From Phycisphaerae bacterium (GTDB taxonomy: Bacteria; Planctomycetota; Phycisphaerae; UBA1845; Fen-1342), in assembly GCA_050115495.1 (NCBI GenBank), contig JASFQK010000003.1, positions 148,259-212,258 of the forward strand: 64,000 bases of DNA, written 5' to 3'. Position 1 is the stretch's first letter, and every line of letters starts with the position of its first letter. A program made the translations under genes and the position numbers. Positions 27,844 through 48,838 of the stretch are shown here, one piece after another. The notes under the pieces were generated by a model that worked only from the letters and a program-made list of their open reading frames with translations, searched no databases and was not told the origin of the DNA.

Positions 27844-29331
27844 TCAGTCGGCGGGGACGCAGCGGCCGTCCGCCCATTCACGCAGAGCCGCCACACGCTC
27901 GGCCATCGTTACCGATAGCGGCGGCGAGGTGCGGACGGCTTCCAAGATGTGCTCCGTGGACAGGTTCTTCTTCACCGCGAAGGCCGCGTGCATGCCGGCG
28001 ATCACGGCCTGCTCGATCTCCGCGCCGCTGAAACCGTCGGCCGCCTTCGCCAGCGCGGTCAGGTCGAACGCCGCCGGCGCACGTTGCCGCTTGCGCAGGT
28101 GAATCGCGAAGATGTCCCGCCGGACCTTCGCGTCCGGCAGGTCGACGAAGAAGATCTCGTCGAAGCGGCCCTTGCGCAGCAGCTCCGGCGGCAGGGCCTC
28201 GATGTCGTTCGCGGTGGCCACGAGGAACGCCGGGCTGGTCCGTTCCTGCATCCAGGTGAGCAGGGTGCCGAACATGCGCTGTGACAGGCCGCCGTCGGTG
28301 CTTCGGCTGGCGGCCGAGGCGAAGGCTTTCTCGACCTCATCCACCCAGAGCACAAGCGGGGCCATGGCTTCCGCCTGTTCCAGCGTGGCCCGCAGCCGCC
28401 GCTCCGACTCGCCGACGTAGCGGTCGTACAGCGCCCCGACGTCCATCCGCAGCAGGGGCAATTGCCAGGCCGTCGCCACGGCCTTAGCGCAGAGGCTCTT
28501 GCCGGCACCCTGGATGCCCAACAGGAGCACGCCACGGGGAGCCGCCAGACCGTACTCGCGGCCGGCGTCGGTCAGGGCCGTCTCACGTTCGGCCAGCCAA
28601 CGCTTCAGTCGGCGAAGACCGCCGATCTCGCTGAGGTCGACGGGCGTGTCGATGTACTCGAGCAGGCTGCCGCGGTGCAGCGTCTGCCGTTTGCGCGTCA
28701 TGACGTGGTGCACATCGGCGTCGTCGAAGCGGCGATCTTCGGTCGCGACTTCGGCGATGATCTGCTCGATTTGTCGCCGGGTCAGGCCGCGCAGGTTGCG
28801 GATGATCGTCTTCAGGCTGTTGCGGGTAATCTTGATCTGAATGGGCCGTTCGCGGCTGACGCGGCGGAGCTTGTCGCGGACGAGCTCGCTGATCTCGGCC
28901 TCGTCCGGCAGCGAGACGGTGAACGTCGAGGCGTACTCGCGAAGAACGTCCGGTAACTCTTCGCCGTAATCCAGCATTACGAGTTGACTACCTGATTCTC
29001 TGAAATGCCGGAGCAGGTTGCGGGCGACGCGCAAGGTGCGTTCGTCGCGCAGGTGCGGTCCGAGGTCGAGCGTGACGCACAGCGGGCGGTCCGGCACGGT
29101 GGCTAGGTGGATGAGGCCCTCGACGGGCTTGTCGGTGTTGGGGACGGGCGGCGTGTCGCGCAGGACGCCGTCCTGGACGCCGCCGCTGACAGACCAGATC
29201 CAGAGGGCGCGGCCGAGCTTGGCGGCGACCTCGCGCAGGAGCTCGAGAACGTAGTCTTCCTCGAATGTCTTGATGCTGACGCACGGCGGTCCGGACCGCA
29301 GTACCTGTTCAAGCCGAATTCGATCGTCCAT
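27844..29331 (-). CDS. AAA+ ATPase (Ycf46-like)
   Basis: GIQGAGKS, WVDEVEK, PPELLRKGRFDEIFFVDLP, GFSGAEIE. Confidence 0.9.
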   Translation of the reverse strand: MDDRIRLEQVLRSGPPCVSIKTFEEDYVLELLREVAAKLGRALWIWSVSGGVQDGVLRDTPPVPNTDKPVEGLIHLATVPDRPLCVTLDLGPHLRDERTLRVARNLLRHFRESGSQLVMLDYGEELPDVLREYASTFTVSLPDEAEISELVRDKLRRVSRERPIQIKITRNSLKTIIRNLRGLTRRQIEQIIAEVATEDRRFDDADVHHVMTRKRQTLHRGSLLEYIDTPVDLSEIGGLRRLKRWLAERETALTDAGREYGLAAPRGVLLLGIQGAGKSLCAKAVATAWQLPLLRMDVGALYDRYVGESERRLRATLEQAEAMAPLVLWVDEVEKAFASAASRSTDGGLSQRMFGTLLTWMQERTSPAFLVATANDIEALPPELLRKGRFDEIFFVDLPDAKVRRDIFAIHLRKRQRAPAAFDLTALAKAADGFSGAEIEQAVIAGMHAAFAVKKNLSTEHILEAVRTSPPLSVTMAERVAALREWADGRCVPAD

Positions 29332-29465
29332 GTCGGAACCCTCGTGGGTGGTGCGTGTTGGTTGGTTGAGGTGACGATGATACACGCTTGCTGGTGAGAG
29401 AGGAGCAGAGGGACGTCTGGCGCGGCTTGGCGGGCGGGGGGCCAGCAGACGAAACGGGCGGTGTG

Positions 29466-29719
29466 TGATGCGTGCGGGAAAAGAACGGTCGAAATGGGGA
29501 AGGGCGGTAAGGCTAGTGGGGCAAAGGACTTAGCGGCGGTTGGCGGTGGAAGGAATGCCGGCGCTTAGGCGCAAATGGCCGGCGGGGGCTGATGTAAGTC
29601 CTTTGTGGGGCGTGAGTTAAAAAAGACCGGTCGCGCGGAATCAAATCTGCCATTCGGCCGGGGGGCGTGACGGCCCTGGCGGGCTGGAAACGCGGTTTCT
29701 GTCGGGAAAAGACCGGTCG
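29466..29719 (+). repeat. Left end with three putative transposase-binding sites
   Basis: TGATGCGTGCGGGAAAAGAACGGTCG from 29466; core AAAAGA(A/C)CGGTCG at 29479-29491, 29621-29633, 29707-29719. Confidence 0.85.
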
Positions 29720-30249
29720 AACGTGACAGCGCCGAAGAGGGGGCGGATCGTGCGTAAGCACTGCGCCACAACGGCTTTGCAGGCGTTTCGACGGCCGATG
29801 TGTCACGGTGCGCTGTCACGGTGGGTAGCGTGACATTTCCGGCCCGGGAGCGGTTTCGGCGCGGCGCAATCGACGGACCGATAACGTCCTTATTGAGACG
29901 GGGTCGCGCGGCGGTGGTGCGGGGCCGCCGGCGGGTCGCGACGGGGCGGGACCGCCCGGTGGGGACCGGGTTCGGCGGGCCGCCGAAGGACGGACGGCGC
30001 CCGGCCGAAGGGGCGTCGGAGACCGGAGCGGATCGGGGCGGGCGGTGGGCGGTTGTCGTTTGTGCAACAGCGGGCGACAGACGGTTACGCGGGGCTGCCG
30101 GGCGGTGGCGGCGGGCCGGGCATGGCCGGGTTCGATCCAGGTTCGACGGCTCGCCGGGCTGGCGTCGAACGGTGTTCGACGGGCGGTTGCGGCGGGGCGA
30201 CCGCCGACGGGGCGAAGCGGGGGCTTCTGCGTCGGGGCGCCGGCGGCGA

Positions 30250-30650
30250 CACGGCGGTAGGCCCATCACTTCACGATAGGCGGGCGTCTCGCTGGCAAGC
30301 TGCATCGCGTCGCGAAACGACAACGTCTTCAACGCGACGGTTGCCACCGGTGATTGAACCATGCTCTTGAAGCAGCCGGCCGTGCCAGGCGTTTGCATCG
30401 CGCGGCGGTATCGAATCGGCTGACCGCAAACCACACTATTCATATTACTGTCGTTCGGGCGGAAGCCGGGCAGACCGGCGGTGCCGCAACACGTTCGATC
30501 ATCGGACAGCCGGCGGAGACGGTTCTCCGCACATAGGAACTTCAGGCCGAGCTCGTGGCAATGCTCCCGGATCAACCGCAGGTCGCGCTCAAGCGCACCG
30601 ACCGCGTAACACCAGTCCGCGCCGACGTGGACCAGCCCGGGGGCGGCGCG
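30250..30650 (-). pseudogene. 5'-truncated fragment resembling the C-terminus of a phage radical-SAM (SPL-like) protein
   Basis: Open frame PGLVHVGADWCYAVGALERDLRLIREHCHELGLKFLCAENRLRRLSDDRTCCG...GTAGCFKS; no CxxxCxxC N-terminus, in-frame stop just upstream; family recognised from memory. Confidence 0.5.
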
Positions 30651-30673
30651 GTATCGTACAATCGAGGTGGATT

Positions 30674-31006
30674 ATGCACGCAATAATGATGCTGGCGTTT
30701 TCGGGGGCGGTCACGCTGACCGCGGGACAGAGGACGTACTTCATCGTGGCCGGGGTCATTGTGGCGGCGCTGGCGTGGGCGGCGGCCGGCGCGGCGGTCG
30801 GTAGCTGGATCGGGAAGCAGAACGGGCACAGCACGGCGTCCCAGCTTCTGGCCATTCTCTTGGGACCGCCGGGCATGATTGCGGCTGTGCTGTTGCCGCG
30901 GACACCCCGGGCGGAAGCGCGCTGGCGGATTCAGGTCAAGCGGGCGATGGAAGACGAGCTGAAGGCGGCGGCGCAGAACCCGCCGCAAGCTGTTCCACGC
31001 GACTGA
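30674..31006 (+). CDS. Small membrane protein (element cargo)
   Basis: 110 aa, two to three hydrophobic segments, GAGGTGG RBS. Confidence 0.65.
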   Translation: MHAIMMLAFSGAVTLTAGQRTYFIVAGVIVAALAWAAAGAAVGSWIGKQNGHSTASQLLAILLGPPGMIAAVLLPRTPRAEARWRIQVKRAMEDELKAAAQNPPQAVPRD

Positions 31007-31038
31007 ACGCGGCGGCGGCGTGCGGACGTCGCGAGCGG

Positions 31039-32220
31039 CTACGGTGAGCATGGAGCGTCGCGGGCCGGGTCGAACCAGTAGCGGAAGGCGGCGTCAAGAT
31101 CAGCAAGGTGCTTCCGCATTGCTTGCCGTGTGGACTCGTCGGCGGCGCCGAAGACCTGCTCGGCGAGGGGTGGTAGGGCAAACAGGCGCATGGCGAACTC
31201 AGCGTAGCGGACGGCTTCGAGTGCTCCCGGCCAGGGGGGCTCTTCGCCGGCCGGCGCGCTCAACTCGCGAAAGTAACCGTCGGGGGAAGTCTCGCGGGCC
31301 TTCGTGACGTATTCGTTCAGGTACAGATAGTGGGGGAGCAGTCCGCGGGCCAGGTCCGAATCGTTGCTTATCAGGCGCAAGAGCTGGCTGAGCCGGAAGG
31401 CCGTCATGACGTCGTGCAACTGGGCGACGGTTTCGGCGGCGATTCCGTGAAAGCCGTACTCGGCTTCGATTGCACTGTCGCGGAAGGTGAGGGATAGACT
31501 CGCTTCGCGGCCGGCGAGGCCGGCGGCCACACAGTCCCACTCGTCAATCATCCTGCCCCAGTGCTGAGCGCTGCGCTCGGAGGCGAAGAGGGTCACACGC
31601 CACACATGCGGGAGGCCCGTGATTACGTCATTCATGGCGTCGCGCGCGATCTCGTCGAGCGGATCGGGACCTTTCGCGAAACTGGCGCTCTCCGCGTCGT
31701 GCTTCAGACCGGCCGCGAAACGGGTACTCTCCGCGTCGTGCTTCAGCTCGGCCGCGGCGCGGCGAAGCAACTCAACTTGTGCATCGGACGGCGGCGACGT
31801 GCGCAGGGCCACCCATGCCAGCGTCGAACCGATCGAACGGACACCATGAAACAGGACTTCGTCCGGGACCATGCGGCCCGCAAGACTCACATCCGACAGC
31901 CGGTCGTGAAGGATGTGGGGCAGGTGTCGCCAGAGAACGAGGCCGGGGAGGGCGACGCCGCGCATGGCGTCGGTGACGGCGGGCGGTTTGCTGACCGCGT
32001 CGGCGAGGGCAAAGAACTCATCACGGTCACGCTGATCGAGCGCAAGTGCCGTCGCCAGCCGGGTTACGGTGTCCCATGTCGGACGGGCCTCGCCGCGCTC
32101 AATGGTCGCGACGTGGTTCGTGGCTATGCCCGCGGCCCGGGCCAGCGACGCGGCGGACCGGAAGCCGTGCGCCTTTCGTTTGTCCCGGAGCCAGACGCCG
32201 AGTGCCTTGCTCGCCTTCAT
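31039..32220 (-). CDS. XRE-family HTH repressor with long C-terminal domain
   Basis: LRDKRKAHGFRSAASLARAAGIATNHVATIERGEARPTWDTVTRLATAL; divergent from the cro-like gene. Confidence 0.85.
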   Translation of the reverse strand: MKASKALGVWLRDKRKAHGFRSAASLARAAGIATNHVATIERGEARPTWDTVTRLATALALDQRDRDEFFALADAVSKPPAVTDAMRGVALPGLVLWRHLPHILHDRLSDVSLAGRMVPDEVLFHGVRSIGSTLAWVALRTSPPSDAQVELLRRAAAELKHDAESTRFAAGLKHDAESASFAKGPDPLDEIARDAMNDVITGLPHVWRVTLFASERSAQHWGRMIDEWDCVAAGLAGREASLSLTFRDSAIEAEYGFHGIAAETVAQLHDVMTAFRLSQLLRLISNDSDLARGLLPHYLYLNEYVTKARETSPDGYFRELSAPAGEEPPWPGALEAVRYAEFAMRLFALPPLAEQVFGAADESTRQAMRKHLADLDAAFRYWFDPARDAPCSP

Positions 32221-32251
32221 CACCAGCAAGCATAGCGAACGGCCGCAACAA

Positions 32252-32325
32252 TTGCACCGATAACGACTTCCGAAAATTGTCTGAATCACCGTTGACAGCG
32301 GTGCAAATGAACGTTAGAAACGGTG
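32252..32325 (+). promoter_or_regulatory. Early promoter with overlapping operator-like palindromes
   Basis: TTGACA 32292-32297, 17 bp, TAGAAA 32315-32320; CACCG-N7-CGGTG 32287-32303; GAACG-N7-CGGTG 32309-32325; TTGCACCG 32252-32259. Confidence 0.65.
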
Positions 32326-32340
32326 AACATGAAGGGAAAC

Positions 32341-32598
32341 ATGGTAAAACTTGACGCCGGAAGGCTGAACCGGGCTCGGTTACGCCGCGGGTGGACGTGG
32401 GCAGACGTGGCCGCCGCAACGGGGCTAGCGAGTCGGACAAGGACAAAGCTGGCGAATGGTGAGCCCGTGACGATCACGGTGGCGCGGCGGGCGTGTGCGG
32501 CGTTGCGCATATCGCTTGCGGCAGCGCTGATTCTTGATGACCCCGTGTCAGTGGAGGCGCCGGCCGAGCTGCCAGTTGGACAGAGCGCGGTGGCATAG
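32341..32598 (+). CDS. Cro/Ner-like small HTH protein
   Basis: RLNRARLRRGWTWADVAAATGLASRT...ARRACAAL; first gene of the rightward operon. Confidence 0.8.
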   Translation: MVKLDAGRLNRARLRRGWTWADVAAATGLASRTRTKLANGEPVTITVARRACAALRISLAAALILDDPVSVEAPAELPVGQSAVA

Positions 32599-32727
32599 CC
32601 CGCTTATGGCGTGACGAGATGACGCACAACCTCAGACATAACGAACGGCTCTCGTCACGCGGCCGGCCGGCCGGCGCTACGGCGCCGCCGGCCGTGCCCT
32701 TTGTGTGTTGTGATTGTGGGTGAGCAG

Positions 32728-33168
32728 ATGACGGAGTCCGTCTCAAAACTCGGTGGCGGCGGGCTGTCGGCGGAGGCGACCCAGGCCTTAATCGAGGAGG
32801 GTATAGCAGCCGCCGCCGAATGCATGGCGGGGCTCGTCGCCGGGCCGCGGTGGTTCGTTGGGCTTCTGGGCGCGGCAGCACGCTTCGCCGCCGTGACGCC
32901 GCTCGGCGAGATTCTGTCCACAGACCTTGACCGGGTGTGTGAGGAAGCCCCCGACGCCTGGAACGTCGTGGGTGAGTTGCGCGCGCTCAGAGCGCGGCTC
33001 GACAGCCTACTCGGGCTCCTGCCGGCCTTCGGCGAGATGGCGTTGCGCGTGGGTGGTTTGGGCGGGGTGCCAGACAAGGCGGCGCTCGATCTCTGCTCGG
33101 CCTTCGCCCATATGGCACAAGGCGTTCTCCGGCGGTGGCTGGCGGAGCTGGAGGCGGCCGAGCAATGA
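32728..33168 (+). CDS. Hypothetical protein
   Basis: Stop overlaps the transposase ATG (ATGA). Confidence 0.55.
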   Translation: MTESVSKLGGGGLSAEATQALIEEGIAAAAECMAGLVAGPRWFVGLLGAAARFAAVTPLGEILSTDLDRVCEEAPDAWNVVGELRALRARLDSLLGLLPAFGEMALRVGGLGGVPDKAALDLCSAFAHMAQGVLRRWLAELEAAEQ

Positions 33169-35711
33169 GCGCGGGCCTGCGACTGGCGCCGGGCGAGTAC
33201 GTCACCGAAGACGGTGAGGTTATTCAGCGCCAGCCGCGCGCGGGGTTGGGGGCGGGGCGGGTGCCGTTCGAGCTGTGCCGCGGGGCGTGGCCGTGCACCG
33301 ATGTGGGCCGGCAGCAGCGGCGGCGCTTCTGGATGGGCTTGTCCGAAACGCTGCGGGAAGAGGGGCCCGACGGCGAGAAGTACATCGACGCCAGCGTTAC
33401 GCTGCCCGGCGGTGACAAGGCGGGGAAGTTCGTCCAATTGGAGTGGGGCTACAAGCCGCCGGCAGGGTGGCGGACCTGGACGGCGCAGCAACGGCGCGAC
33501 TGGGAACGGAAGGTCGCGGTGTTGGTGCGTGTGGAGCAATTCTTCCTCGCTCGCCCGCACCTGCTGCGGTCCAAACCGTCCAGCTACCGGGAGTTCAATC
33601 GTGCCAATGTCGAATGGCTGGCCGAGATGGGACGGGAGTATCAGCCGTGCGGCCGGCCGCTGCGCGTCAGCAAGACGACGTTGAACGCGTATGCACGAAC
33701 AATCAACGATCCGGATAAGGCCGCACCCAAGCGCGGCCGGCCGAAGGGGAGCGGCGCGAAGGAATGGCACCCGCGGGCGCTTGAGCTGTTCGACACGCTC
33801 TACCGCGGGCACCGCGACGCGAGCGACGTACTGCGGAAGATCCAGGCCTACGCATGGAAAGAGGGCTTCGAGGCGCCGACGCCGGCTATGGTCTACAAGC
33901 GCATTCGGGAGATGACGCAGGCGGAGCGGGTCTTTCGACGGTCCGGGATGCGCGGCGTGAAAGAGCAGTGCGTTCCGAAGATGCGACGGACGCGAGCGGA
34001 ACTGAAGGGATGGTCGTTCGGTGATGGACATACGATAGCCGGGTTCATCAGGGTGCCTGACGGACACGGCGGTTTGAAGGCAGTGCGTCCGACGGTTGCC
34101 GGCGTCTATGTGGCATTTGCCCAGAAGTTCTCGGAGGCGCGCGCTGGGTTGTCCGAGAGCGCGGAACTGATGGCGGCGGCGTGGCGAGGGGCGGTCCTCG
34201 AAGATGGGCCGCCGGCGGTCGCGCAGTTTGACAACACACACGCCATGGACGGGCTTACGGGCTCGCCGTATCGCAAGCAGCCGGGGCGGCGGGCCAAGTA
34301 CGCCAGCGGGGGCCTGGGCGGTTTCTTCTCACTCTTCGGTACGCAGGTGCACAAGAGCAAGCCCGGAGAGAAGCACACGAACGCAGTTGAGAGCGGCTGG
34401 CGGTATTTGATCCGCGCGGTTGAGAAGTGGATGAACTCATACTGCGGGTCGCATCCGAAGGACAAGCCGGAAGGGCTGGACCGCTGGCTACGAGACAACA
34501 TCGACAAGCTCCCGACGCTGGAAGACCTGAACGTGTTCTTGCGAGAATTCAAGGCTGCGCACAACGCAACGCCGCGGCGGGCGCTGGGGGGCTTGACACC
34601 CAACCTGTTCATGGAGCGGTACGGTCCTACGCGGCGGATCATCGACCCCGACACGATCGACATTTACCTGTGCCCGATTGTGGCGGAACGGACGCTGGGG
34701 CGGGACGGCGTTTCGCTCAACGACATCCTGTACACGCCGGGGCCCAGCGTACTGCTGCGGTGGCAGGGCAAGCGTGTCGGTGTGCGACGAGACCCGGACC
34801 GGCTGGACCGTGTCACGCTCTGCGACGCAGACGGCGTCGCGATCGGGCGAGCGTACAACGACAAGCTGCGCGGGGCGCGTGCCCAGTCTATGAAGGTGGC
34901 AGAGCGTCGGGCACGACAGTACAAGGCCGCGCTGCGCACGATGATCGACACGCGGGATACGCGCTTCATGCCGAAGACCTTCGAGATTCTGCGCGTTGAG
35001 CGAGAGTACCGCGAGGCCGAAGAGGGGCGGCTGCGGAAGCAACTCGCCGACGATCCCAAGCGGGAGACGACGATCATCCGGCCGGACCTGGCCGCGTCCG
35101 CGGCTGAATGCAAGGAAGCGGACGCGCGGAGAGATGCGCAGCACGAACGACAGAAGGCGCGCAAGGCCGTCGGCGATGCTGCGGAAAGGGCGGGGTACTC
35201 GCAGGACGAACTCCTGTCGGGACTGGGCAGGTCGGCGATGCTGACGGGCGGCATGTCCGACGAGCTGCGAGCGAGGATTCGTCGCAGCATCAACATGATG
35301 GATGACTGCGACAACGAGTGTGAGGCCCGGGCGGAAGCTCAGGAGCCGGGGGACCGGCGCCGCATGGTGATGGAGCAGCTCGCGGCACGGGCTCGATACG
35401 ATGAAGAGGCCGAACGCAACACGCCGCGCCGGGAGAGCATCGGAGAGCGGTTCGCGAAGATGTACAGGGAAGCAGAGGGCGGAGGGCAGGGGGGACCAGG
35501 TGGGGACATGAGCGGCTTCGACATGCTGGCCCGCGGGCCGGCGGCGGACGCGGACGACGACGACGAGCTGGACCCCGTCGCGTTGCGCATGGAGTACTTC
35601 GGGAGTGAGATCCCGCGGCCGCCATCGGAAGAGCCCAACCCGTGGGACGAGTTTGTAGTGGGCGAAGACGAAGACGGCGACGCTGAGCAGGGGGACGACG
35701 ATGCGGCGTAG
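33165..35711 (+). CDS. Mu-type DDE transposase (MuA-like)
   Basis: SFGDGHT (D), AQFDNTH (D), NAVESGW (E), HNATPRRALGGLTPN, RTLGRDGVSLNDILY C-terminal domain; HTH region VSKTTLNAY...EAPTPAMVYKRI. Confidence 0.9.
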   Translation: MSAGLRLAPGEYVTEDGEVIQRQPRAGLGAGRVPFELCRGAWPCTDVGRQQRRRFWMGLSETLREEGPDGEKYIDASVTLPGGDKAGKFVQLEWGYKPPAGWRTWTAQQRRDWERKVAVLVRVEQFFLARPHLLRSKPSSYREFNRANVEWLAEMGREYQPCGRPLRVSKTTLNAYARTINDPDKAAPKRGRPKGSGAKEWHPRALELFDTLYRGHRDASDVLRKIQAYAWKEGFEAPTPAMVYKRIREMTQAERVFRRSGMRGVKEQCVPKMRRTRAELKGWSFGDGHTIAGFIRVPDGHGGLKAVRPTVAGVYVAFAQKFSEARAGLSESAELMAAAWRGAVLEDGPPAVAQFDNTHAMDGLTGSPYRKQPGRRAKYASGGLGGFFSLFGTQVHKSKPGEKHTNAVESGWRYLIRAVEKWMNSYCGSHPKDKPEGLDRWLRDNIDKLPTLEDLNVFLREFKAAHNATPRRALGGLTPNLFMERYGPTRRIIDPDTIDIYLCPIVAERTLGRDGVSLNDILYTPGPSVLLRWQGKRVGVRRDPDRLDRVTLCDADGVAIGRAYNDKLRGARAQSMKVAERRARQYKAALRTMIDTRDTRFMPKTFEILRVEREYREAEEGRLRKQLADDPKRETTIIRPDLAASAAECKEADARRDAQHERQKARKAVGDAAERAGYSQDELLSGLGRSAMLTGGMSDELRARIRRSINMMDDCDNECEARAEAQEPGDRRRMVMEQLAARARYDEEAERNTPRRESIGERFAKMYREAEGGGQGGPGGDMSGFDMLARGPAADADDDDELDPVALRMEYFGSEIPRPPSEEPNPWDEFVVGEDEDGDAEQGDDDAA

Positions 35712-35916
35712 CGTGGTCCTGGAACGTCTAGCGGCGGCGCGGGGGAGCGCTCGCGGGGTTGTCGCTCCGCTTCGAGCGAGCCGCGCCGCCGCTGTAATTC
35801 TTGTGTGTGTCGGGCTGTCGGCAGGGACGTCGGCGGCAGTGGCGTATCGCGGGCTGGCCGACAGGGACGTCGGCGGCTCGCTTCCCCCGATGTGCGATGC
35901 GCAGGGGACGCCAGCA

Positions 35917-36930
35917 ATGACGGTAGCAGCGAACACGTTTTCAGCAGCCTTCGAGGAAGCCGCGCGGCGAAACGAAACACGGCAGGCGGTGCGGCTGGTC
36001 CGCGACGGCGAGCCGCTCGCGGACGAGGCGGCGGCGATTGCCGCGGTTCGCAAGCACCTGGACGAGAACGGGGTCGAACCGAAGCGGCTGGCGAAGGCGC
36101 TCGACGTGGCGCCGAGCCTCATTCGGGGGCTGTTCGCAACGCCCGCGACGATTCCCGACGGCCCGCGCCACACGCTGATTCGGGACGCGAGCCGCTGGTG
36201 CCGCGCGGACGCCGAAGAGCGCCGCGTGCGCAAGGCGGCGTTCGTGCCGACGGCGTGCACGCGGCTGGTCGTGGGGCTGGCCCGCGTGGTCCGCGAGACG
36301 CGCACGATCGGGTTGGTGGTGGGCGGGCCGGGGCTCGGCAAGAGCCACGCGCTCGCAGTCGCCGCGGCGGAGTTGCCGGGCGAGACGGTGCTGGTCCGGT
36401 GTGACACGGACAGCCGCTCAGCCAAGGGCATACTCCGGGCCGTCGGCTTCGCCGGGGCGGCGGCGCTGTCGAGCGTGGCCCGGCCTTCGGTCAAGGCCGG
36501 CGTCGAGGCGGTGCGGGCCGGCAACGGACTGGTCGCCGTGGACGAGGCGCAACTTCTCGGCGTGAACGGCCTTGAGGCGCTGCGGGCCGTGTTCGATCAG
36601 GCCGGAGTCGGGCTGCTGCTGGTCGGGACCACGTCGCTGGCGCGGTCGCTGAACGGCGGGGCTGATCCGCTGTGCGGGCCGCTGGTGTCGCGGATCGCTT
36701 TGCGTGTGGACCTGGACGACGAGCTGTTGGGCGGCGGGCGGAACTGGATCGACGCGGCGGCGCTGCTGTTGACGCTGGCGAACGGGGACCCGGCGCACCT
36801 GCGGTGCGCGGTGGACACGGCGAAGGTCGCCCGCGTGCTAGCGCGGAACCGGGACGGACACGACGGCGGCGGGGCGGTTTCGCTGGCGGACGTGCAGGCG
36901 GCGCTACGCATGAGACGGAAGGACGGATGA
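35917..36930 (+). CDS. MuB/TnsC-like AAA+ ATPase
   Basis: N-terminal HTH (KRLAKALDVAPSLI), GPGLGKS Walker A, VAVDEAQ Walker B, LRAVFD, LLLVG, SRI; ORF open from 35701. Confidence 0.88.
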   Translation: MTVAANTFSAAFEEAARRNETRQAVRLVRDGEPLADEAAAIAAVRKHLDENGVEPKRLAKALDVAPSLIRGLFATPATIPDGPRHTLIRDASRWCRADAEERRVRKAAFVPTACTRLVVGLARVVRETRTIGLVVGGPGLGKSHALAVAAAELPGETVLVRCDTDSRSAKGILRAVGFAGAAALSSVARPSVKAGVEAVRAGNGLVAVDEAQLLGVNGLEALRAVFDQAGVGLLLVGTTSLARSLNGGADPLCGPLVSRIALRVDLDDELLGGGRNWIDAAALLLTLANGDPAHLRCAVDTAKVARVLARNRDGHDGGGAVSLADVQAALRMRRKDG

Positions 36931-37538
36931 CGAACGACGAGCTTAACGCGGCTCTTGCGGTGGCTCCCGGCCGGACGGTGTCGTGGGCGGCGGCGGCGCG
37001 GCTGGTGGATGCCCTCGCCCCCGGGCTGACGGCGCTGCGGCGGGACGGCACGACGCGGGCGCTGCGCACGGTGCTGTGTTACTGCGCCGCGGTGGCAGCG
37101 GACCGCCGGCGGCTGGAACAATGGCGAGCGCGGCCGCGTGCGACACGAGGCCGGCGCCCGGGGCGACTGACGATCCCGGCTTTTTTGTACAAGTGGCACC
37201 GCCAGCAGGGCGACCGCGTCTCACGCCGCACGTTCGCGCGATGGATACGCCGCTACCGGCAGACGGGGGCGGCCGGCCTGATTGACGGCCGCGGAGCGTG
37301 GAAGCGGGCGAGCACGCGCGCGGACGTGCAGCTCTTCGCCGAGTTGCTGCGGCGCGTGGCGGCTGGTGCGCCGGTCGCGGTTGCCTGGCGCGAGTTGGCG
37401 CCGGCGGCGAGAGAACAGGGAATCGCCTGGCCGGCGCTGCGCTCGATGCAGGAACGCGTGGCGGCGGTGCGGCCGTTCATCCAGGCGAACGCAGAGCTTC
37501 TGGGCGCGCCGCGGCGGCGACGAGGGGGGCGCAAATGA
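36927..37538 (+). CDS. Stand-alone transposase-type DNA-binding (HTH) protein without catalytic domain
   Basis: VSRRTFARWIRRYRQTGAAGLIDGRG and AWRELAPAAREQGIAWPALRSMQERV; ATGA overlap with the ATPase. Confidence 0.75.
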   Translation: MTNDELNAALAVAPGRTVSWAAAARLVDALAPGLTALRRDGTTRALRTVLCYCAAVAADRRRLEQWRARPRATRGRRPGRLTIPAFLYKWHRQQGDRVSRRTFARWIRRYRQTGAAGLIDGRGAWKRASTRADVQLFAELLRRVAAGAPVAVAWRELAPAAREQGIAWPALRSMQERVAAVRPFIQANAELLGAPRRRRGGRK

Positions 37539-37935
37539 GCTGGCGCTGTGCCACGAGAACGGGCCGCAGACGTGCAGGACTCGGCTCTGCTCGGCGATCG
37601 GTCGCTTGTCAGGGGGGTAAGGCGGGGCGATGCAGCCGCGGGGCTCCTGCGGGCTTGCATCACAAACTGCGAACCGCCCGGACGGTCCGGGTGGCCGCGG
37701 TCGACGGAAATCGACCTTGTCGTTGCCGATCGGATCAGCTCGCCGTTGCGCCGGCGGTGGGACTCGTCCCCCCGCCGGCGGTTTGTCGCGGCCGGCGCCG
37801 GCAGCGGCTCTGCCGACTTGGGATCCATCCGCGGGCGGGCCGCGGGCGTGGCACGTGCACGCCCGCGGTGCCGACCGTCCGCGGCACGGGCGTGGTGGCG
37901 CATTGAGTCGTCGTTAGCGACAGGAGGTCGCACGC

Positions 37936-39255
37936 GTGGCTGAGGAAAAAGAACTGCTCAAGGTTGAGCTGGACGTCGCCGAGGCGCTGGCCCGGGCCGA
38001 GAAGCTCAAGCAGACGCTGGAAGAGCTGGACAAGGTGCGGGCCGCGGGGGGCGATACCACCGGACTGGAGGCGAGACTCAACCAGGAAGTCAACGCATTG
38101 GGGGCGGTGGTCGTACAGCAGAAACAGAACGCAGGTACGACCGAAGAGGTCATTCGCCAGAAAGAGAAGCTCGCGTCGGTGGTCACCATGCTCGGCGGCC
38201 GGTTTGGGGGCTTGGTAGGGCAACTGGCGAGCGTGGGCGAGCTGTTGCTACAGATGGGACCGGCCGTTGGAGTCGTCGCCGGGACCTTGGCAGGGACCAC
38301 GGCAATCGTCGCGGGCTGGCAGGCCGTGAACCGCGAACTCAAGGAAGCCGCCGAGCGTCTGGAGCACTTCCGCAGGGCGAAGGAAGAGGTGGTCAAGGGC
38401 GAGATGTCGCCGTTGAGACAGATCGAAGGCGACCTGCTGAAGATGGGGCTCCTGGAACAGGGCCGCGCCGAGAAAGTGTACGACTACGCGCTGGCCATGA
38501 TGAGCCAGGGTGTGCCGAAGGACCTGGCGCTGTCGATTGCTCCCGAAGCGCACGCGGCGGGATTGCCGTCACAGTCGGCTTCGATACTGGCGATGGCGAA
38601 GGCGGCGGGGGTGGAGATTGCCGATACGCCGCGGGCGATGAAGACGGCGGACGAGCGGATGTCGGCCGAGTCGCGGCTTCTGTTCTCTCAGCAGCTCGTC
38701 GCGATGCGCACCACGCTTACCGGAAGAGACGCAATCGGCGAAGCGGCGAACATGCGGCGGATGAAGGAAGACGACCCCGGGAACTGGCTCGCGTACATGG
38801 GCGGCACTACGGACGTGAGGACGCTTGAATTCGCGAAGCGGATGGGGTTGCTTGATCCGGAAGCGGGACGGCAGGACGTTAGCAAGAAGATGGGCGAACT
38901 CGCGCGTGCGCGCGGGGGGCGAAGGCGGCTACGCAATTACCTGGCCGGCCGGTCGCCAGACGAAGACGGCCCGGCGGACGAGGTGCCTAAGCCGACGCCG
39001 CAATTCGATCGGCAGATCGAAGAGTTGGAAAGAATCGAGAACATCTACAAGGAGATTGGCGCAAACCGGGCCGCAGAGGACGCGTCGGGTCCGGCGCCGG
39101 GATACACGCCGCGGAATGGGACGGTCAACGTGTACAACCTCTACAACACGACGAACCAGGGCGTAGTGCTGAACGCGCCGGACCCGCGGATGCGCACGCC
39201 GGGGGTGTCGTCGCTCAACCCGGGACTGGCCGACGCATTCAGGAACCGGGATTAG
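37936..39255 (+). CDS. Coiled-coil, tape-measure-like protein
   Basis: Helical N-terminus, Gly/Ala-rich hydrophobic stretch, C-terminal TVNVYNLYNTTNQ; AGGAGG RBS; function is inferred. Confidence 0.55.
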   Translation: MAEEKELLKVELDVAEALARAEKLKQTLEELDKVRAAGGDTTGLEARLNQEVNALGAVVVQQKQNAGTTEEVIRQKEKLASVVTMLGGRFGGLVGQLASVGELLLQMGPAVGVVAGTLAGTTAIVAGWQAVNRELKEAAERLEHFRRAKEEVVKGEMSPLRQIEGDLLKMGLLEQGRAEKVYDYALAMMSQGVPKDLALSIAPEAHAAGLPSQSASILAMAKAAGVEIADTPRAMKTADERMSAESRLLFSQQLVAMRTTLTGRDAIGEAANMRRMKEDDPGNWLAYMGGTTDVRTLEFAKRMGLLDPEAGRQDVSKKMGELARARGGRRRLRNYLAGRSPDEDGPADEVPKPTPQFDRQIEELERIENIYKEIGANRAAEDASGPAPGYTPRNGTVNVYNLYNTTNQGVVLNAPDPRMRTPGVSSLNPGLADAFRNRD

Positions 39256-39267
39256 ACGGGAGACCCC

Positions 39268-39708
39268 ATGTCTTTTGAGCTGGTCGAATCTGGCGACTTC
39301 GGCGGCGGCGGTGAGGCCCTGGCCGAGGGGGAATGCAGCCTGAGGAAGGGCGGGAAGCTGGTCGCACACGCCGCGGACCTGGCGCTCGTGAACATCGGCA
39401 ACTATGCCATGGTCATGGCCGATGCCGGGACCCTGCGCATCGCGCTTCGGGCGGTGCGCGATGGCGAGGAAGCGAAGAGTTACGCGTGTTCGGTGGTCCG
39501 AAGAGCCAACAAGACCGATAGCGGCCGGCGCGAAATCAACGTGTTGCGAGCTTTGCACCGGCTGAACCTTACGCCGGAAGCGGTGGTCGGTCGGTACCCG
39601 CTGACCGTGAAGGGCGAGGGCGCCGGCGGGATGCTCATTGTGAATCTGGTCGGCGACGGGGCGAAGGACCCGGAGGGGGAGAAAGACAAGGGGGCGGCGA
39701 AGGCGTGA
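39268..39708 (+). CDS. Hypothetical protein
   Basis: 146 aa, GGGAG RBS, operonic position. Confidence 0.75.
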   Translation: MSFELVESGDFGGGGEALAEGECSLRKGGKLVAHAADLALVNIGNYAMVMADAGTLRIALRAVRDGEEAKSYACSVVRRANKTDSGRREINVLRALHRLNLTPEAVVGRYPLTVKGEGAGGMLIVNLVGDGAKDPEGEKDKGAAKA

Positions 39709-39839
39709 TGTTCGGAAGGGGTGCACATGTCGGATTCGGGCGGGTCGGTGGCGACGGCGCCGCCGCCGGCGGGCCTATGCGGACGAGTGGGTCGCACGGG
39801 CCACCGCTTCGCGCCGCGGGACAGATGGAGGATACGAGC

Positions 39840-40160
39840 ATGTCAGACCACACCCAACAGAGTGCGGGGGAACCGACGAGCTGGCCGCCGCTGGATTCGC
39901 GGGTGGAACTCAGAGTGCGGGGGATGGAACGGGGCGCACGTGCGCACGGCCGGCTGTTGGCGGCGTGCGAGCTGACGTCCGACGATCAGCAGCGGCTACA
40001 TGCCTGGCTATCCGGGCGCGGCGGCCCGGCACAGTTCGGCGCCCTGGTCCGGTTGTTGGGCAGGCTGGACTTCGATGAACGCCGGGACTTGATCGACGGG
40101 CTGCACGAGATCATCGAGGTACCGGCACCGCAGTCGTCGGACGCGAAAGGCGGTGCGTGA
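39840..40160 (+). CDS. Hypothetical protein
   Basis: GGAGGA RBS before ATG 39840; stop overlaps the next start. Confidence 0.6.
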   Translation: MSDHTQQSAGEPTSWPPLDSRVELRVRGMERGARAHGRLLAACELTSDDQQRLHAWLSGRGGPAQFGALVRLLGRLDFDERRDLIDGLHEIIEVPAPQSSDAKGGA

Positions 40161-40855
40161 TGTGTGGACACGCAACAACGGTACGGCAGGACATGCCGAC
40201 GTGGTCGGCGCTGAAGGATTTGGTCGCCGGGTTGGGGGAGCGGGACATCAACCGCCCGCTCGGTCGGGCCAGCGGTGACGAGCCGCTGTTGCCGGCGCCG
40301 GAGGTCGTGGCTGAGGCCGTCGCCCGGGAGTTGCTTTGCATCAGGCAGCGAATGGCGGCGGCGCTGGGGTGGCTTGAGCAAGGGATCATCGCCGATTTCG
40401 AGTTCGCGGCCGACGATTGCGAGGCGGGCCGGCGGCTGGCGGTGGACGAGCTGCACGATGCGCAGACCCGGCTCCATGAATGCGGCGGAGCGCTGCTGAC
40501 CTGGCTGCGCCTGGTCGGGCACAGCTCGATTGTGCCGTTGGATGCGGAATCATGGGCGGCGCTCTGCGCTTTGGCGGAAGACACGCTGCCGCACCCGCAC
40601 GCGGGCTACGTCAGCGAGCTCGTCAAGGCGGCCGTCGTGAACCTGTCAGAGCGACAGGACGCCCCGGCGGTAGTCGCGCGCGGCGAGTGTGAGCGGCTCC
40701 GGGCGTGCGGGTTCAAGCTGAAACCGGACCGGTGGCCGTCTGTCCAGGTCGGCGGCGGGAAGCCCTGGCCGGCGACGGAAGCGAAGAATGGCAAGAGCGG
40801 CAAGGCGTCGCGGGCGAAGGCGTCCGCGGGCAAGGCCGCGGTGGCGGTTGCTTGA
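40157..40855 (+). CDS. Hypothetical protein
   Basis: 232-aa ORF, GTGA overlap with the upstream gene, Lys/Ala-rich tail. Confidence 0.65.
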   Translation: MMCGHATTVRQDMPTWSALKDLVAGLGERDINRPLGRASGDEPLLPAPEVVAEAVARELLCIRQRMAAALGWLEQGIIADFEFAADDCEAGRRLAVDELHDAQTRLHECGGALLTWLRLVGHSSIVPLDAESWAALCALAEDTLPHPHAGYVSELVKAAVVNLSERQDAPAVVARGECERLRACGFKLKPDRWPSVQVGGGKPWPATEAKNGKSGKASRAKASAGKAAVAVA

Positions 40856-40865
40856 GGATCTGAGC

Positions 40866-41948
40866 ATGTACGGGTGTCTGGTTGCGAAGGTGGGCGGCGT
40901 GCCCAAGCGTGAGTTTCGCATCGTCCCATACGGCGCGGTCGATGCGGTCAACGCCGCGAAGGGCGGGCCGTTCACCTTCACACGCGAACACGCCCGACAG
41001 GCGGTCTCGTGGTTCCAGCGGGTGGGCCGAAAGCTGATGATCGACTACGAGCATCAAAGCGTGCAGAGTTTGAACACCCGGCCGGACGGGCTGTCGCCCG
41101 CGGCCGGGTGGATCGGGCGTATCGAAGCCCGTCCGGATGGACTCTGGGCGGCGGATGTCGAGTGGACGGCCGCCGCTGCGGAAGCCCTTCGGCGCGGGGA
41201 GTACGCCTACTTCTCGCCGGTCATTTACTGGGGCGACCGGAACCATGGCACACTCGACAGCTTGGGGCCGATCGCGCTCACCAACGATCCGAGTATGACC
41301 AACGTCGAGCCGCTCGTCGCGACGCGGCTACACGTGGATGTGTTCGCCGGCGACGGCGCCGGCGGAAGTGAGACCAGCCCGGGCAGGACGCCGCGGGGCG
41401 CAACACAAGGAGACGGTATGAGCCCGATGGATCGGGTGGCGGAGGCCCTTGGGCTTGCGCCCGGGGCGAGTCTGGAAGAGATCCTCGCCGAGATCAAGCG
41501 GCGGGGTGGCGCACAGACGACGGCGGCGATTCGCGCGCGACTGGGACAGCTCGAAGCGGGAGTCACGGCACTGACGGGCTGTCCGGCGCGCGGGGCGAAC
41601 GACGAAGCCGGCTGGGCGGCGGAGTACGACGCAAACCTCCCCGACGCGGAAACGGGACGTCCTCTTCAGGACTGCTTCATGAGCAGAGACAACTACGTCC
41701 ACTACATGAAGGCGGTACAGGATGGGCTTGTTACCACGCGCCCCAGCCGACAGCAGCGGGCGGCGACGGTTGCCAAGCGCAGAGCGGAAGAGGGGATGTC
41801 GGACGCGACCTTCGAGGCCGTTCTGAGGAGGGAGTGGAACGGCAACGTGGTCGACGAGACCGGCCGTCGCGTGCGCGAGTGTTTCTTCAGCTTCGAGAAC
41901 TTCGCCGCGTACCGGCGGGGCGTGAGATCGGAACGCATCACAGCGTAG
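40866..41948 (+). CDS. Mu gpI-like prohead protease with C-terminal scaffold region
   Basis: LMIDYEHQS, SPAAGWI, DGLWAADVEWT, EYAYFSPV, ALTNDP motifs of Mu-like prophage I proteases. Confidence 0.9.
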   Translation: MYGCLVAKVGGVPKREFRIVPYGAVDAVNAAKGGPFTFTREHARQAVSWFQRVGRKLMIDYEHQSVQSLNTRPDGLSPAAGWIGRIEARPDGLWAADVEWTAAAAEALRRGEYAYFSPVIYWGDRNHGTLDSLGPIALTNDPSMTNVEPLVATRLHVDVFAGDGAGGSETSPGRTPRGATQGDGMSPMDRVAEALGLAPGASLEEILAEIKRRGGAQTTAAIRARLGQLEAGVTALTGCPARGANDEAGWAAEYDANLPDAETGRPLQDCFMSRDNYVHYMKAVQDGLVTTRPSRQQRAATVAKRRAEEGMSDATFEAVLRREWNGNVVDETGRRVRECFFSFENFAAYRRGVRSERITA

Positions 41949-42020
41949 GCCGCTGCGGGCATCGGACGAGAAGACACCAGCAGCCACGAACGGCTGCGTA
42001 GCTTGAGAAAGGATTCGGGA

Positions 42021-42863
42021 ATGACCGATGTGGGACTGACTGAGAAGCCGATTACCAGCAAGCTGTCCGAGCAGGCGGCGGCGCTGTTGGCGGATCGGCG
42101 TGCCAAGGCGGGGCAGGCGTACTCGGAGATGCTTCGCCGCAACGATTCGCCGCAGGCAGGCGACGCTGAGCGACTGGCGGACGTGATGCACACGCTGGGG
42201 CGGGACGGCAATGACCTCGAAGACGACACGCTCCTGGTGCAGAAGATCATGGAGGCGGAACAAGCCGCCGGTGACCTGGAGGCCTTCGAGGCGACCGAGG
42301 CGCCGCCCATCGCGCAGAAGTACCGCGATGGAATGGCCCGGTTCAAGGCCGAGCGGGAGGCGTTCGAGAAGCGGTGGCATGAGGAAATCGAGGCGCTGGA
42401 ACGCGAGTGGAGCCTCTGCAAGCACAAGCGTGTGAACCTGAACACCGTCGCCAGACAGCTCGACTTCCTGCGGCGGAAGTGGGCGGAGCGGATCGGTCAG
42501 CCCTTGCCGCCGGTGAAGCGGGAGACCATTCCGGCTCCGAAGCCGTCGCGTGAGGAAGTGATTGCCCGCATGAAGCGGGAGTGCGAGCGATTCACGTTCA
42601 GCGTGGCGGTAAGTCAACGGACCCGGTGGACAGTAGCCGACGGCGTAGGCCGTGGCTGGAGGATACGAACATGGGACAACCGATTCACGCAGAGCAGCAG
42701 AAGCAGCAGTTGTTGCTCGCCTGGCTCGCGGTTGAGCCGGGCCTGCAAAACCTGGACACGCTCCCGCCGCAGGTCCTCGACCTGGAAGAGTGCTTTCACA
42801 CGGTGCCGCAGTCCATCGCGCACCTGGTTCGGCCGGGGGGCAGCGCTACGTATCGCGAGCTGA
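42021..42863 (+). CDS. Hypothetical coiled-coil protein
   Basis: First ~195 aa are protein-like; the tail overlaps the next gene by 193 bp, so the end is uncertain. Confidence 0.6.
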   Translation: MTDVGLTEKPITSKLSEQAAALLADRRAKAGQAYSEMLRRNDSPQAGDAERLADVMHTLGRDGNDLEDDTLLVQKIMEAEQAAGDLEAFEATEAPPIAQKYRDGMARFKAEREAFEKRWHEEIEALEREWSLCKHKRVNLNTVARQLDFLRRKWAERIGQPLPPVKRETIPAPKPSREEVIARMKRECERFTFSVAVSQRTRWTVADGVGRGWRIRTWDNRFTQSSRSSSCCSPGSRLSRACKTWTRSRRRSSTWKSAFTRCRSPSRTWFGRGAALRIAS

Positions 42864-43291
42864 TTCAGCGGCTGAAGCGCATGCGGCGTCTGGCGACCTG
42901 GATCGAAGACGAAGACGGCCTGGACACGCTGCCCGGCATGCCGGAAGGCGTCCAGTTGCTGAGCGACTGCGGGCACGCTGTGCCGGAGTCGGTGTCGGCG
43001 AAGGTCGGCTTCAACGGCCCGACCGGTTACGGGGCGGTGGTGGAGCGTCTGGGGCACATGGGGGCGCTGCTACGCTTCCTGGACGGGCATCCCGACGGCT
43101 TGCGGCCCGGCGACGAGATTCCGGCGGACGTGCTGAAGCTGAAGGACTGTTCGGTTCCCATCCCGTCGGCGAGCGAATCGACCGCGTCGGCGGCGGTGGG
43201 TCTGTCCGGACGCGTGTCCTACGGGTTGATCGTCGGGCGGCTGCTTGAGCTGAAGGCCGCGCCCGCGACCGACCAGCCCGCAGCGGAATAG
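42671..43291 (+). CDS. Hypothetical protein with three internal ~57-aa repeats
   Basis: Repeat 'L....GL....P..V..L.(D/E)C...(V/I)P.S...V...G...Y....RL'; GGAGGA RBS. Confidence 0.7.
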   Translation: MGQPIHAEQQKQQLLLAWLAVEPGLQNLDTLPPQVLDLEECFHTVPQSIAHLVRPGGSATYRELIQRLKRMRRLATWIEDEDGLDTLPGMPEGVQLLSDCGHAVPESVSAKVGFNGPTGYGAVVERLGHMGALLRFLDGHPDGLRPGDEIPADVLKLKDCSVPIPSASESTASAAVGLSGRVSYGLIVGRLLELKAAPATDQPAAE

Positions 43292-43425
43292 ACGACCGCC
43301 CGGCGGCGGTTCTGCGGGCCTTCGATGAGCGATTGATTAGCCGTCGAAGGACGACATAGAGGCCGAACCGACGGCCTTATTGAGACGCCCGGTGGGGGGC
43401 CGGGCTTGGAGTTTGCGCCCGTTTT

Positions 43426-43473
43426 CGACCGGTCTTTTCGTGCAGCGCGACCGGTCTTTTCGCGCGCCGATCA
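43426..43473 (-). repeat. Right end with two tandem putative transposase-binding sites
   Basis: CGACCGGTCTTTT at 43426-43438 and 43448-43460 (22-bp period); terminus ...CGATCA at 43473. Confidence 0.85.
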
Positions 43474-43534
43474 TGAAGGGCCCGCGAGGTGGCCGGAGGG
43501 GGTTTTGAGCCGCCCGGTCGCTGTGTGACTCATA

Positions 43535-43562
43535 ACGTCCTATAATATATATTATGTTGCGT
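43535..43562 (+). other. dif-like XerCD recombination site
   Basis: ACGTCCTATAA-TATATA-TTATGTTGCGT, 11-6-11 layout, intergenic, strikingly AT-rich; close to B. subtilis dif as recalled (ACTTCCTAGAA-TATATA-TTATGTAAACT). Confidence 0.8.
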
Positions 43563-43645
43563 TCGGCATAATGGGCGGGTAGGGTGCATTAGCCCCCCGG
43601 CCCCGGGCCTTTTCGTATATCCGACTGAGGGTTGGGATTGCTGGG

Positions 43646-43972
43646 CTACGGCTGGCGGTTGTCGGCCGGTGCGGCGGTTTGAAGCTGGCTTAACTCAAAG
43701 CCAGCCAAGGGCTTAAGCTGACGCCGGTTATAGTCGTAGCTGTAGACGATCATACGCTTGGCGGCGGCGTCGAGGACGATCACGCCCTCGTTCGACGTCG
43801 TAAGTTGTTGCGTGCAAACGACATAGTCTCCGCTGCGGTCGCTCATGCCGATGGCCTGCGCCGGCGGCGCAGAATTCACCAGCAAGAGCCCGACGAAGAA
43901 AATGCACGCGGTCACACTCAGAACGCCGATGGCAAACGTCCGGGCGTCGATCGTGGTGGATGGCGTGCTCAT
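43646..43972 (-). CDS. Hypothetical small membrane-anchored protein
   Basis: TM plus beta-rich tail; operonic. Confidence 0.75.
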   Translation of the reverse strand: MSTPSTTIDARTFAIGVLSVTACIFFVGLLLVNSAPPAQAIGMSDRSGDYVVCTQQLTTSNEGVIVLDAAAKRMIVYSYDYNRRQLKPLAGFELSQLQTAAPADNRQP

Positions 43973-43975
43973 GGT

Positions 43976-44263: not shown

Positions 44264-44276
44264 GGCGCCTCCCGCA

Positions 44277-46084: not shown

Positions 46085-46094
46085 CCGCAGCGCT

Positions 46095-46481: not shown

Positions 46482-46588
46482 GCCGGGCCCCAGAGACAGT
46501 GAATGTCGAGGACAACTGGGGAATCGACCGGATGGCGGCCCGGCTTGAAGCCGACCTCGGCAATCTACCGAGACGATAACTCAGGGGT

Positions 46589-46651: not shown

Positions 46652-48838
<2,187 letters not shown>

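Follow-up and report, generated by a model that had tools for sequence, protein, structure and literature searches.

The window analysed here, a stretch of 64,000 nucleotides from a Phycisphaerae bacterium, contains a Mu-type transposable element of 14,008 bp at positions 29466–43473. Gene content, shared with relatives in other genomes, places this element among natural mini-Mu elements of 12–14 kb that form a small, conserved lineage in Planctomycetota, a lineage that appears not to have been described before. Its predicted gene set cannot build a particle, and on that ground we do not regard it as an autonomous Mu-like phage. Whether the members of this lineage transpose on their own and depend on a helper for particles seems to us evenly poised. 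Somewhat less probable is the fuller proposal that they are the first phage satellites to use Mu-type transposition, with an MraZ-like regulator and with protease/scaffold-like and tape-measure-like genes of their own (and a capsid gene in one subtype) that remodel helper particles. A sequence-only reading of the same DNA had proposed a satellite that replicates by its own transposition and hijacks a helper phage, its own scaffold and tape measure serving to make smaller particles; an independent, reduced lineage with its own transposition and regulation was indeed found, whereas the hijacking of a helper received no direct support.

An inverted-repeat scan returned matched ends at 29466 and 43473, exactly where they had been placed from the sequence alone. 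Both termini follow the consensus TGAT-N8-GAAAAGA[A/C]CGGTCG, that is, TGAT, eight bases and a common 14-nt motif, the left terminus reading TGATGCGTGCGG then GAAAAGAACGGTCG and the right terminus, in reverse complement, TGATCGGCGCGC then GAAAAGACCGGTCG. With up to one mismatch allowed, the 14-nt motif has six matches in the 5.97-Mb assembly, five of which lie at the ends of the element and one elsewhere. Three forward copies, beginning at 29478, 29620 and 29706, are found on the left: L1 (GAAAAGAACGGTCG, 29478–29491), which with the preceding TGAT and 8 nt makes up the terminus at 29466–29491, L2 (AAAAAGACCGGTCG, 29620–29633) and L3 (GAAAAGACCGGTCG, 29706–29719). On the right (43426–43473), two reverse copies, R2 (43426–43439) and R1 (43448–43461), are repeated with a 22-nt period and followed by a 12-nt terminus ending in GATCA. 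In phage Mu the transposase sites are spread at the left end and contiguous at the right, and the arrangement of three spread and two contiguous sites seen here appears to match that pattern. Termini that form an inverted TG...CA pair and have more than one subterminal site for the transposase are a Mu-type feature too.

Since the window is G+C-rich (approximately 67%), genes were picked by codon-position G+C and then by family searches. Related loci are cited by label where necessary (L053 is G005:C55, L062 is G063, L083 is G130:C35 and L081 is G052:C10 12001–32000). Near the left end, a repressor-like protein of 416 amino acids (aa) is encoded on the minus strand (31039–32289, the true start probably being Met24 at 32220). 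It carries an N-terminal helix-turn-helix (HTH) domain of the HTH_31 family (E 2e-10) and a C-terminal domain of about 330 aa without a family match, and is 28–37% identical to its counterparts in related elements. Divergent from it is the gene of a Ner/Cro-like, 91-aa HTH protein of the Cro/C1 type (32323–32598, plus strand). The plus strand then encodes a MuA-type DDE transposase (33135–35711; Mu-transpos_C PF09299, 3e-8; phrog_310, 8.5e-46), an adjoining MuB-type AAA+ ATPase (35701–36930; AAA_22, 2e-13; phrog_296, 2.4e-27) with Walker A (GGPGLGKS) and Walker B (VAVDEAQ) motifs visible in the translation, and a 203-aa winged-HTH protein (36927–37538; HTH_29/HTH_28) that weakly resembles the N-terminal DNA-binding region of MuA. 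The start of this last gene overlaps the MuB stop (ATGA), and homologues occur in L072, L074, L080 and L050. Residues D297, D366 and E419 of MuA are invariant in all nine aligned homologues, and a profile made from these nine matches the Mu transpososome chain 4FCY at 1.2e-26, the triad falling on the Mu motifs DGY, DN and VER; phmmer searches with the single MuA and gpI sequences against PDB sequences gave no match. The repressor/cro switch, the intact DDE triad and the MuB-like ATPase that had been recognised in the sequence-only reading are therefore all borne out, and the coupling by overlapping start and stop codons that it described was verified at MuA/MuB, at MuB/36927, at 39705 and at 40157. 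Two smaller plus-strand genes complete the region: one for a 110-aa hydrophobic protein (30674–31006) with a 35%-identical homologue that occupies the equivalent place in L051, past the repressor, and a 155-aa open reading frame (ORF; 32701–33168) with a coding signal, for which neither family searches nor the loci of related elements provided a homologue.

The sequence after this early region amounts to about 5.4 kb, with all genes on the plus strand. It begins with a gene for a 439-aa protein resembling tape measure proteins (TMP-like; 37936–39255), in which a coiled coil precedes a Gly/Ala-rich hydrophobic stretch, followed by a gene for a 146-aa protein (39268–39708), a translationally coupled 151-aa ORF without a family match (39705–40160) and a 232-aa ORF with weak homologues in L066 and L051 (40157–40855). 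A head maturation protease of the gpI type comes next (40788–41948, probable start at 40866; Mu-like_Pro PF10123, 1.5e-33; phrog_328, 1e-33). The gene had been read as a head protease/scaffold, of which the protease half is present, but the canonical scaffold half is missing, because the match spans only model positions 2–209 of 330; in its place is a non-canonical C-terminal half with an internal repeat. Downstream lies a 286-aa ORF (42003–42863) for a conserved post-protease protein, residues 1–220 of which are homologous to proteins of L068, L053 and L083. The last gene, an element-specific ORF of 236 aa (42581–43291), probably starts at 42671; its translation contains three repeats of some 55 aa and has no family match. 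Since the ORF has no homologue in related elements, it looks like right-end cargo. The protease is 50–57% identical to gpI of other elements and to that of a full head-tail module in another genome (G052:C10, 50%), the N-terminus of the TMP-like protein is 41% identical to that of the tape-measure gene in the same module, and pairwise similarity connects the TMP-like proteins of different elements. The identities with the module make the gpI and TMP-like genes true kin of phage morphogenesis genes.

Across the 14 ORFs of the element, terminase, portal, capsid, tail and lysis families gave no match in Pfam or PHROGs, in agreement with the sequence-only reading. The same searches found no integrase family in any ORF and recognised no TnsA, target selector or resolvase. 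The post-protease protein, modelled from four sequences (42003–42668), has a predicted local distance difference test (pLDDT) score of 77. The model consists of helices only, one of them about 96 residues long, and contains no strands, so that the protein is neither an HK97-fold capsid nor a portal; by the shape of the model alone it may be scaffold-like. A Foldseek search of this model against viral structures returned nothing at E ≤ 0.001, and a search for the protein in a language-model atlas gave no usable match. The 151-aa, 232-aa and last ORFs are below portal size and look helical or repeat-like by sequence.

Of these downstream genes, the 146-aa gene is the hallmark of the lineage, its product being 45–60% identical among members as compared with 24–38% for MuA. 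Among 5.8 billion proteins it falls into 24 clusters including its own, all of which are unnamed or hypothetical and all of which come from Planctomycetota or Phycisphaerae wherever the source names an organism. A structure model built with 12 sequences has a mean pLDDT of 77.5 (83–94 in the core), and its best match among solved structures is MraZ (1N0E; Z 6.7, root-mean-square deviation 2.7 over 84 residues), the next row scoring 3.6. Foldseek ranks MraZ–DNA complexes and B3 domains, with weak E-values and no PDB match at E ≤ 0.001, and links the model to several uncharacterised phage proteins with probabilities of 0.95–1.0. With modest confidence, then, the model suggests that the hallmark protein is probably an AbrB/MraZ-like DNA-binding regulator.

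MuA matches at E ≤ 1e-10 were present in 51 of the 279 genomes of the order, the best being only 38% identical. When element proteins were compared with these loci by tblastn, a recurrent order emerged: repressor, Ner, MuA, MuB, (HTH), the 146-aa gene and the protease. A search with an alignment of the 146-aa protein gave the same gene order at 6 loci in genome contigs, on 11 metagenome contigs and at 1 weak locus in a viral contig; partial copies of the lineage also occur in metagenome contigs. Three elements are bounded on both sides, those of the window, of G063 and of G005, and since their flanks are unrelated they represent independent insertions. The G063 element, from another genus of the same family, measures 13,232 bp. 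Its left terminus is TGACGGGAGCAC followed by GAAAAGATTG and its right terminus ends in AATCTTTTCGCGCACCGATCA; its right end, TCTTTTCGCGC[G/A]CCGATCA, is identical to that of the window at 20 of 21 bases and comprises two 21-nt direct repeats, and GCGGA stands immediately outside both ends as a perfect 5-bp target duplication. It encodes a repressor, MuA, MuB, the 146-aa protein, an S78-type protease, a major capsid protein of the Phage_capsid family, a phrog_5707 protein, a 407-aa TMP-like protein and a 217-aa protein, after which host genes resume. The G005 element, from the same genus as the window, spans contigs C64 and C55, which share an exact 141-nt overlap (the end of C64 being the start of C55), and is about 12.4 kb long. 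C64 carries the left-end repeats, repressor, Ner, MuA, MuB and HTH gene, and C55 the TMP-like gene, a 100-aa ORF, the 146-aa gene, two ORFs, gpI, the post-protease gene and two terminal repeats. The repeats read ACTCTCATTTG, twice, on the right, and on the left CAAATGAGAGT and CAAATGGCAGT; they leave its precise ends and its duplication ambiguous. Its right flank consists of the host genes mraZ, mraW, a LysM protein gene, ftsI, murE, murF, mraY and ftsW. The insertion (L053 5584–5669) thus lies some 50–100 bp upstream of mraZ, where the dcw cluster begins; that the element's own hallmark protein is MraZ-like may be coincidence.

A check for syntenic mini-elements at other loci, set beforehand as a test that could have gone against the satellite idea, accordingly yielded the G005 and G063 elements, so that the window element is not a one-off deletion; the nearest relatives that came up are likewise mini-elements and not full-length prophages. 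These syntenic elements also speak to the claim that a TMP-like gene ahead of gpI is not the product of one simple deletion. Being common to the window and the same-genus G005 element, that order is old.

Downstream of the 146-aa gene, content was counted in nine elements (window, L053, L055, L065, L072, L068, L067, L075 and L083) using PHROGs and/or Pfam. A portal or terminase was recognised in 0 of 9, a head protease in 8 of 9 (gpI-type in four, S78/phrog_80-type in three and ClpP-type, phrog_94, in one, L075 having no family match), and a major capsid protein in 3 of 9 (L055, L065 and L072); none of the gpI-type elements has its own capsid gene. Right-end content varies: the window element has the repeat protein, which is without relatives, and L068 a DNA methyltransferase. 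In a variant of about 20 kb, genes for a RhuM/PDC-S05 protein (7e-152), two HNH restriction-like proteins (approximately 1e-84 to 1e-88) and a DNA methyltransferase follow (L083 2593–7749), although the ends of this G130 variant are unmapped, so that these defence-type genes may lie inside or outside the element. The ends of L065, L072, L068 and L051 did not yield convincing terminal inverted repeats, and in L072 a tRNA-like sequence stands just past the last element gene. Several contigs of the family are 11.6–17.6 kb long, lengths that would fit assemblies breaking at element ends but are only suggestive. One metagenome contig (L075 1–10230) holds two related elements placed tail to tail in opposite orientation, their TMP-like proteins 89.5% and their last genes 68% identical.

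A number of observations weigh against a transposing, helper-dependent element, and some of them would be expected if these were decaying Mu-like prophages whose similar sizes reflect the order of gene loss. The window copy is without a 5-bp target duplication (GTGTG against TGAAG in the flanks, with either plausible left terminus tried). The first 1.1 kb or so inside its left end (29.5–30.6 kb) has no clean coding signal. In the post-protease gene, the signal stops at about 42600–42670 and passes to the frame of the following ORF; its 3′ tail overlaps that ORF, a C-terminal segment found in the homologues is absent, and the 3′ end looks degenerate. Flanking synteny is broken as well. Selection could be gauged only in part, as most of the figures from the proposed dN/dS check are saturated by high divergence and G+C bias and are unreliable: Nei–Gojobori dS was 1.0–2.0 for most pairs, with dN/dS of 0.3–0.75. 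Two comparisons are informative: between its copies in G005, the 146-aa gene gave dN 0.13 and dS 0.68, and the L075 pair stands at about 0.5–0.6 (dN/dS of 0.065/0.137 for the TMP-like gene and 0.18/0.30 for the last gene), a value that again would suit decay. On the other side, the ORFs of the window copy are open, with anomalies confined to the 3′ end of 42003–42863 and to 29.5–30.6 kb, and the reduced architecture recurs at 26–60% aa identity with open frames and intact catalytic residues, which, while not a rigorous test, argues for long-term constraint. The G063 member has matched ends and a perfect target duplication, conservation is stronger in the 146-aa gene than in MuA, and no full-length relative bearing the hallmark gene was found among the 24 protein clusters and 17 loci. 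Taken with these points, decay seems to us an unlikely account of the lineage.

The broken synteny can be located. In two relatives (G004 and G013) hisS directly adjoins an AT-rich stretch and the genes of the right flank, whereas in the window 35.6 kb, comprising 21.6 kb of ordinary genes and the element, separate hisS (6555–7856) from the right flank beyond 43473. Because this adjacency is broken here, the left end of the element falls at a synteny breakpoint, which fits the missing target duplication. We considered whether the 35.6 kb might have arrived as one transduced headful or Mu-mobilised block and rejected the idea, the 21.6 kb being a mosaic of blocks that lie on different contigs in all five relatives searched. 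The AT-rich stretch itself (43529–43566; about 34 nt, containing TATAATATATATTATG) lies 56 nt outside the right end and is 91–97% identical across many genera of the family; it had no Rfam match, as was true of the whole window (0 matches), and is probably a conserved promoter/operator of the neighbouring small-gene cluster. The left neighbour, on the minus strand at 27844–29385, encodes a 513-aa AAA ATPase (phrog_8638, 8e-132) and yet, with DNA 69–75% identical across the family, is a conserved chromosomal gene.

The other points that count against helper dependence concern the morphogenetic label, the helper and activity. Some likeness to tape measure proteins, and homology to the TMP-like genes of other elements, back what the sequence-only reading had said of the 439-aa protein, but the label is weak (phrog_1293 at E 0.003, with a language-model score of 0.92 to TMP clusters). 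A complete Mu-like helper, which had been expected to be worth seeking in the same genome, did not appear: in this assembly (92% complete) the single MuA match is the element itself, with no second, and Terminase_6N, Terminase_6C and TerL_ATPase have no match. This weakens the satellite reading without refuting it, since a helper need not be resident. In one public run that contains the element, perhaps the source sample, one contig of 17 kb extends across both ends at a depth of 20, like the flanks, and the contigs of that run include neither alternative end junctions nor excess depth; a stable single copy is shown, and as contigs drop rare variants low-level activity would still be compatible with this. 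In a collection of viral contigs, the 146-aa alignment retrieved only 1 weak relative and the single 146-aa sequence none, and none of 80 viral contigs with gpI relatives (≤48% identity) had other element genes within 10 kb.

Near absence from viral contigs, together with the fact that no helper and no packaging signal were found, would be natural for a purely intracellular Mu-family transposon, which MuA and MuB would move only within and between replicons and which would spread by other routes. Its phage-derived genes would then serve some other end, e.g. protecting the host by interfering when infecting phages assemble. The variable right-end cargo, with candidate defence genes (RhuM/PDC-S05, HNH and methyltransferase) in the G130 variant, points in the same direction. 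However, that cargo may be outside the element, and PADLOC gave no match in the window element beyond the HTH of the repressor. A phage-type lysogeny switch and a conserved, coupled morphogenetic operon also reproduce the layout of a phage late region, and a head protease in eight and a capsid gene in three of nine elements also speak against such a transposon. We allow this explanation a modest chance, well short of that given to helper-dependent transposition.

A possible source of particles is found in the same genome but outside the window, where a Mu-like head gene island occupies contig C14 at approximately 38,000–48,000 (L008, L009). It encodes a portal (PF06074, 1.5e-72), a GNAT acetyltransferase, gpI, a phrog_1731 protein, a gpT capsid (5.8e-43), a Gp36 adaptor and about seven small ORFs, between ordinary host genes (feoB, cation efflux, glycosyltransferase); no MuA or terminase was found in it, and no tail genes were recognised. 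It holds the only Mu-type portal, protease and capsid of the genome. Portal_Mu, mostly in one copy, was detected in 245 of the order's 279 genomes, or in 148 of 159 when those of high quality are counted, and gpT adjoins gpI in all seven genomes of the genus. Such islands look like an anciently domesticated head module, gene transfer agent (GTA)-like or other, and a limited literature search found no description of an order-wide head island. The boldest version of the satellite proposal would have the elements draw on this order-wide island. As a separate explanation, the resident island would supply shell and portal, to be adapted by the protease and TMP-like gene of the element. Its presence in the same genome and across the order accords with this, as do the absence of a capsid gene from gpI-type elements and the 52% identity between the element's protease domain and the island's gpI, the C-terminal halves being unrelated and that of the element thus replaced. 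Yet no large terminase was found in the genome and no tail genes were recognised in the island, and the element's gpI is about as close to that of other elements and of a phage module (50–57%). Co-occurrence of island and element is uninformative, because the island is nearly universal. Of the explanations weighed, we find this the least likely. The G052:C10 locus (L081) was tried as a model of a full-size helper and set aside, its status being doubtful: it is divergent from MuA/MuB, an IS1595 transposase lies between, and no terminase was recognised. Its module comprises a 1007-aa portal–gpF fusion, gpI, a glycosyltransferase-like gene, a capsid, an adaptor and a tape measure.

Comparison with known systems places the elements between phage, transposon and satellite. 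Mu-like phages, such as B3, D3112, BcepMu and RcapMu, are about 35–40 kb long, and the c repressor of Mu has 196 aa. The window element agrees with them in its transposition genes (a MuA-type DDE transposase with Mu-transpos_C next to a MuB), in a left-end switch of divergent repressor and Ner genes, in TG...CA termini whose sites are spread on the left (three) and contiguous on the right, in a gpI-family protease and, for the G063 member, in the 5-bp duplication. Unlike them, it is 14 kb long, genes for terminase, portal, capsid, tail and lysis are missing, its repressor is about twice the length of Mu c, its TMP-like gene precedes the protease, and it carries the MraZ-like hallmark gene, which is not known from Mu. 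Tn7 and Tn5053 (TnsB/TnsC and TniA/TniB) likewise combine a DDE transposase and an AAA+ regulator with multiple end sites and a 5-bp duplication, but the element profile fits MuA at 1.2e-26 as against 1.3e-4 for TnsB, its lysogeny switch and head protease are phage-type, and TnsA, target selector and resolvase went unrecognised. Closest in design is the laboratory mini-Mu, which helper Mu can package (mini-Mu-duction) and which also joins Mu ends and A/B functions on a short transposing element, although here the need for a helper is inferred; the present elements are natural, are conserved across genera and have morphogenetic-type genes and a regulator of their own. Units termed mini-Mu(LR/LER) are described in the available part of PMC3145075.

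Known satellites, according to the text available of PMC10085698, integrate chromosomally, usually by means of a tyrosine recombinase (the integrase being a core gene), and replicate with their own replicase; in the main text of that paper the word transposase occurs 0 times. The statement of the sequence-only reading that classical satellites use integrases agrees with this. The same text gives a median of 14 kb for cfPICI and reports that these encode capsid and protease genes. As far as these partial sources extend, the elements are like P4-like satellites, PICI, cfPICI, PLE and PICMI in size, in the gene order that is kept, in having their own regulation, integration and replication and in their variable cargo, and some encode capsid and protease as cfPICI do. 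They differ in that Mu-type transposition takes the place of tyrosine integrase and primase/replicase. They differ also in being without a small terminase, a portal or a known redirecting gene; the redirecting families sid, cpmA/B and tcaP had no match in the window element. AH14b was considered as a Mu-type satellite and discarded, being P4-like with a tyrosine integrase in the portion of PMC4936722 available, and a limited literature search over partial texts found no transposase-based or Mu-type satellite.

What the elements do have in common with satellites is integration, replication and regulation of their own without virion genes, and a conserved, reduced architecture at independent sites; satellite status is plausible on these grounds. 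Candidates for a hijacking module are the gpI with a replaced C-terminal half, the long-helix post-protease protein and the TMP-like protein, none of which matches a known redirecting family. In the life cycle we propose for a transposing satellite, the long repressor would hold the element silent, and its extra domain of about 330 aa could sense the helper, much as Stl of SaPI is a satellite repressor that senses a helper. Upon derepression, MuA and MuB would integrate the element and replicate it by transposition, and the MraZ-like protein would turn on the coupled operon. The altered-C-terminus protease, the long-helix protein and the TMP-like protein might then enter or change helper particles, and the element would leave the cell by being packaged, from one of its ends, into the particles of a full-size phage.

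If this is true, a satellite based on MuA and MuB would represent a new, single solution for both integration and replication, and a natural counterpart of the laboratory mini-Mu. Amplified at many places in the chromosome and packaged with variable host DNA at either end, it could transfer and rearrange genes to a considerable degree. The question is directly testable, because the family is small and delimited by a hallmark gene, short ends and one perfect target duplication. Even if these elements are no satellites, a conserved, reduced Mu lineage in Planctomycetota, a phylum that has received little study, has kept a head protease and a TMP-like gene, and what these would be doing outside a phage becomes the question.

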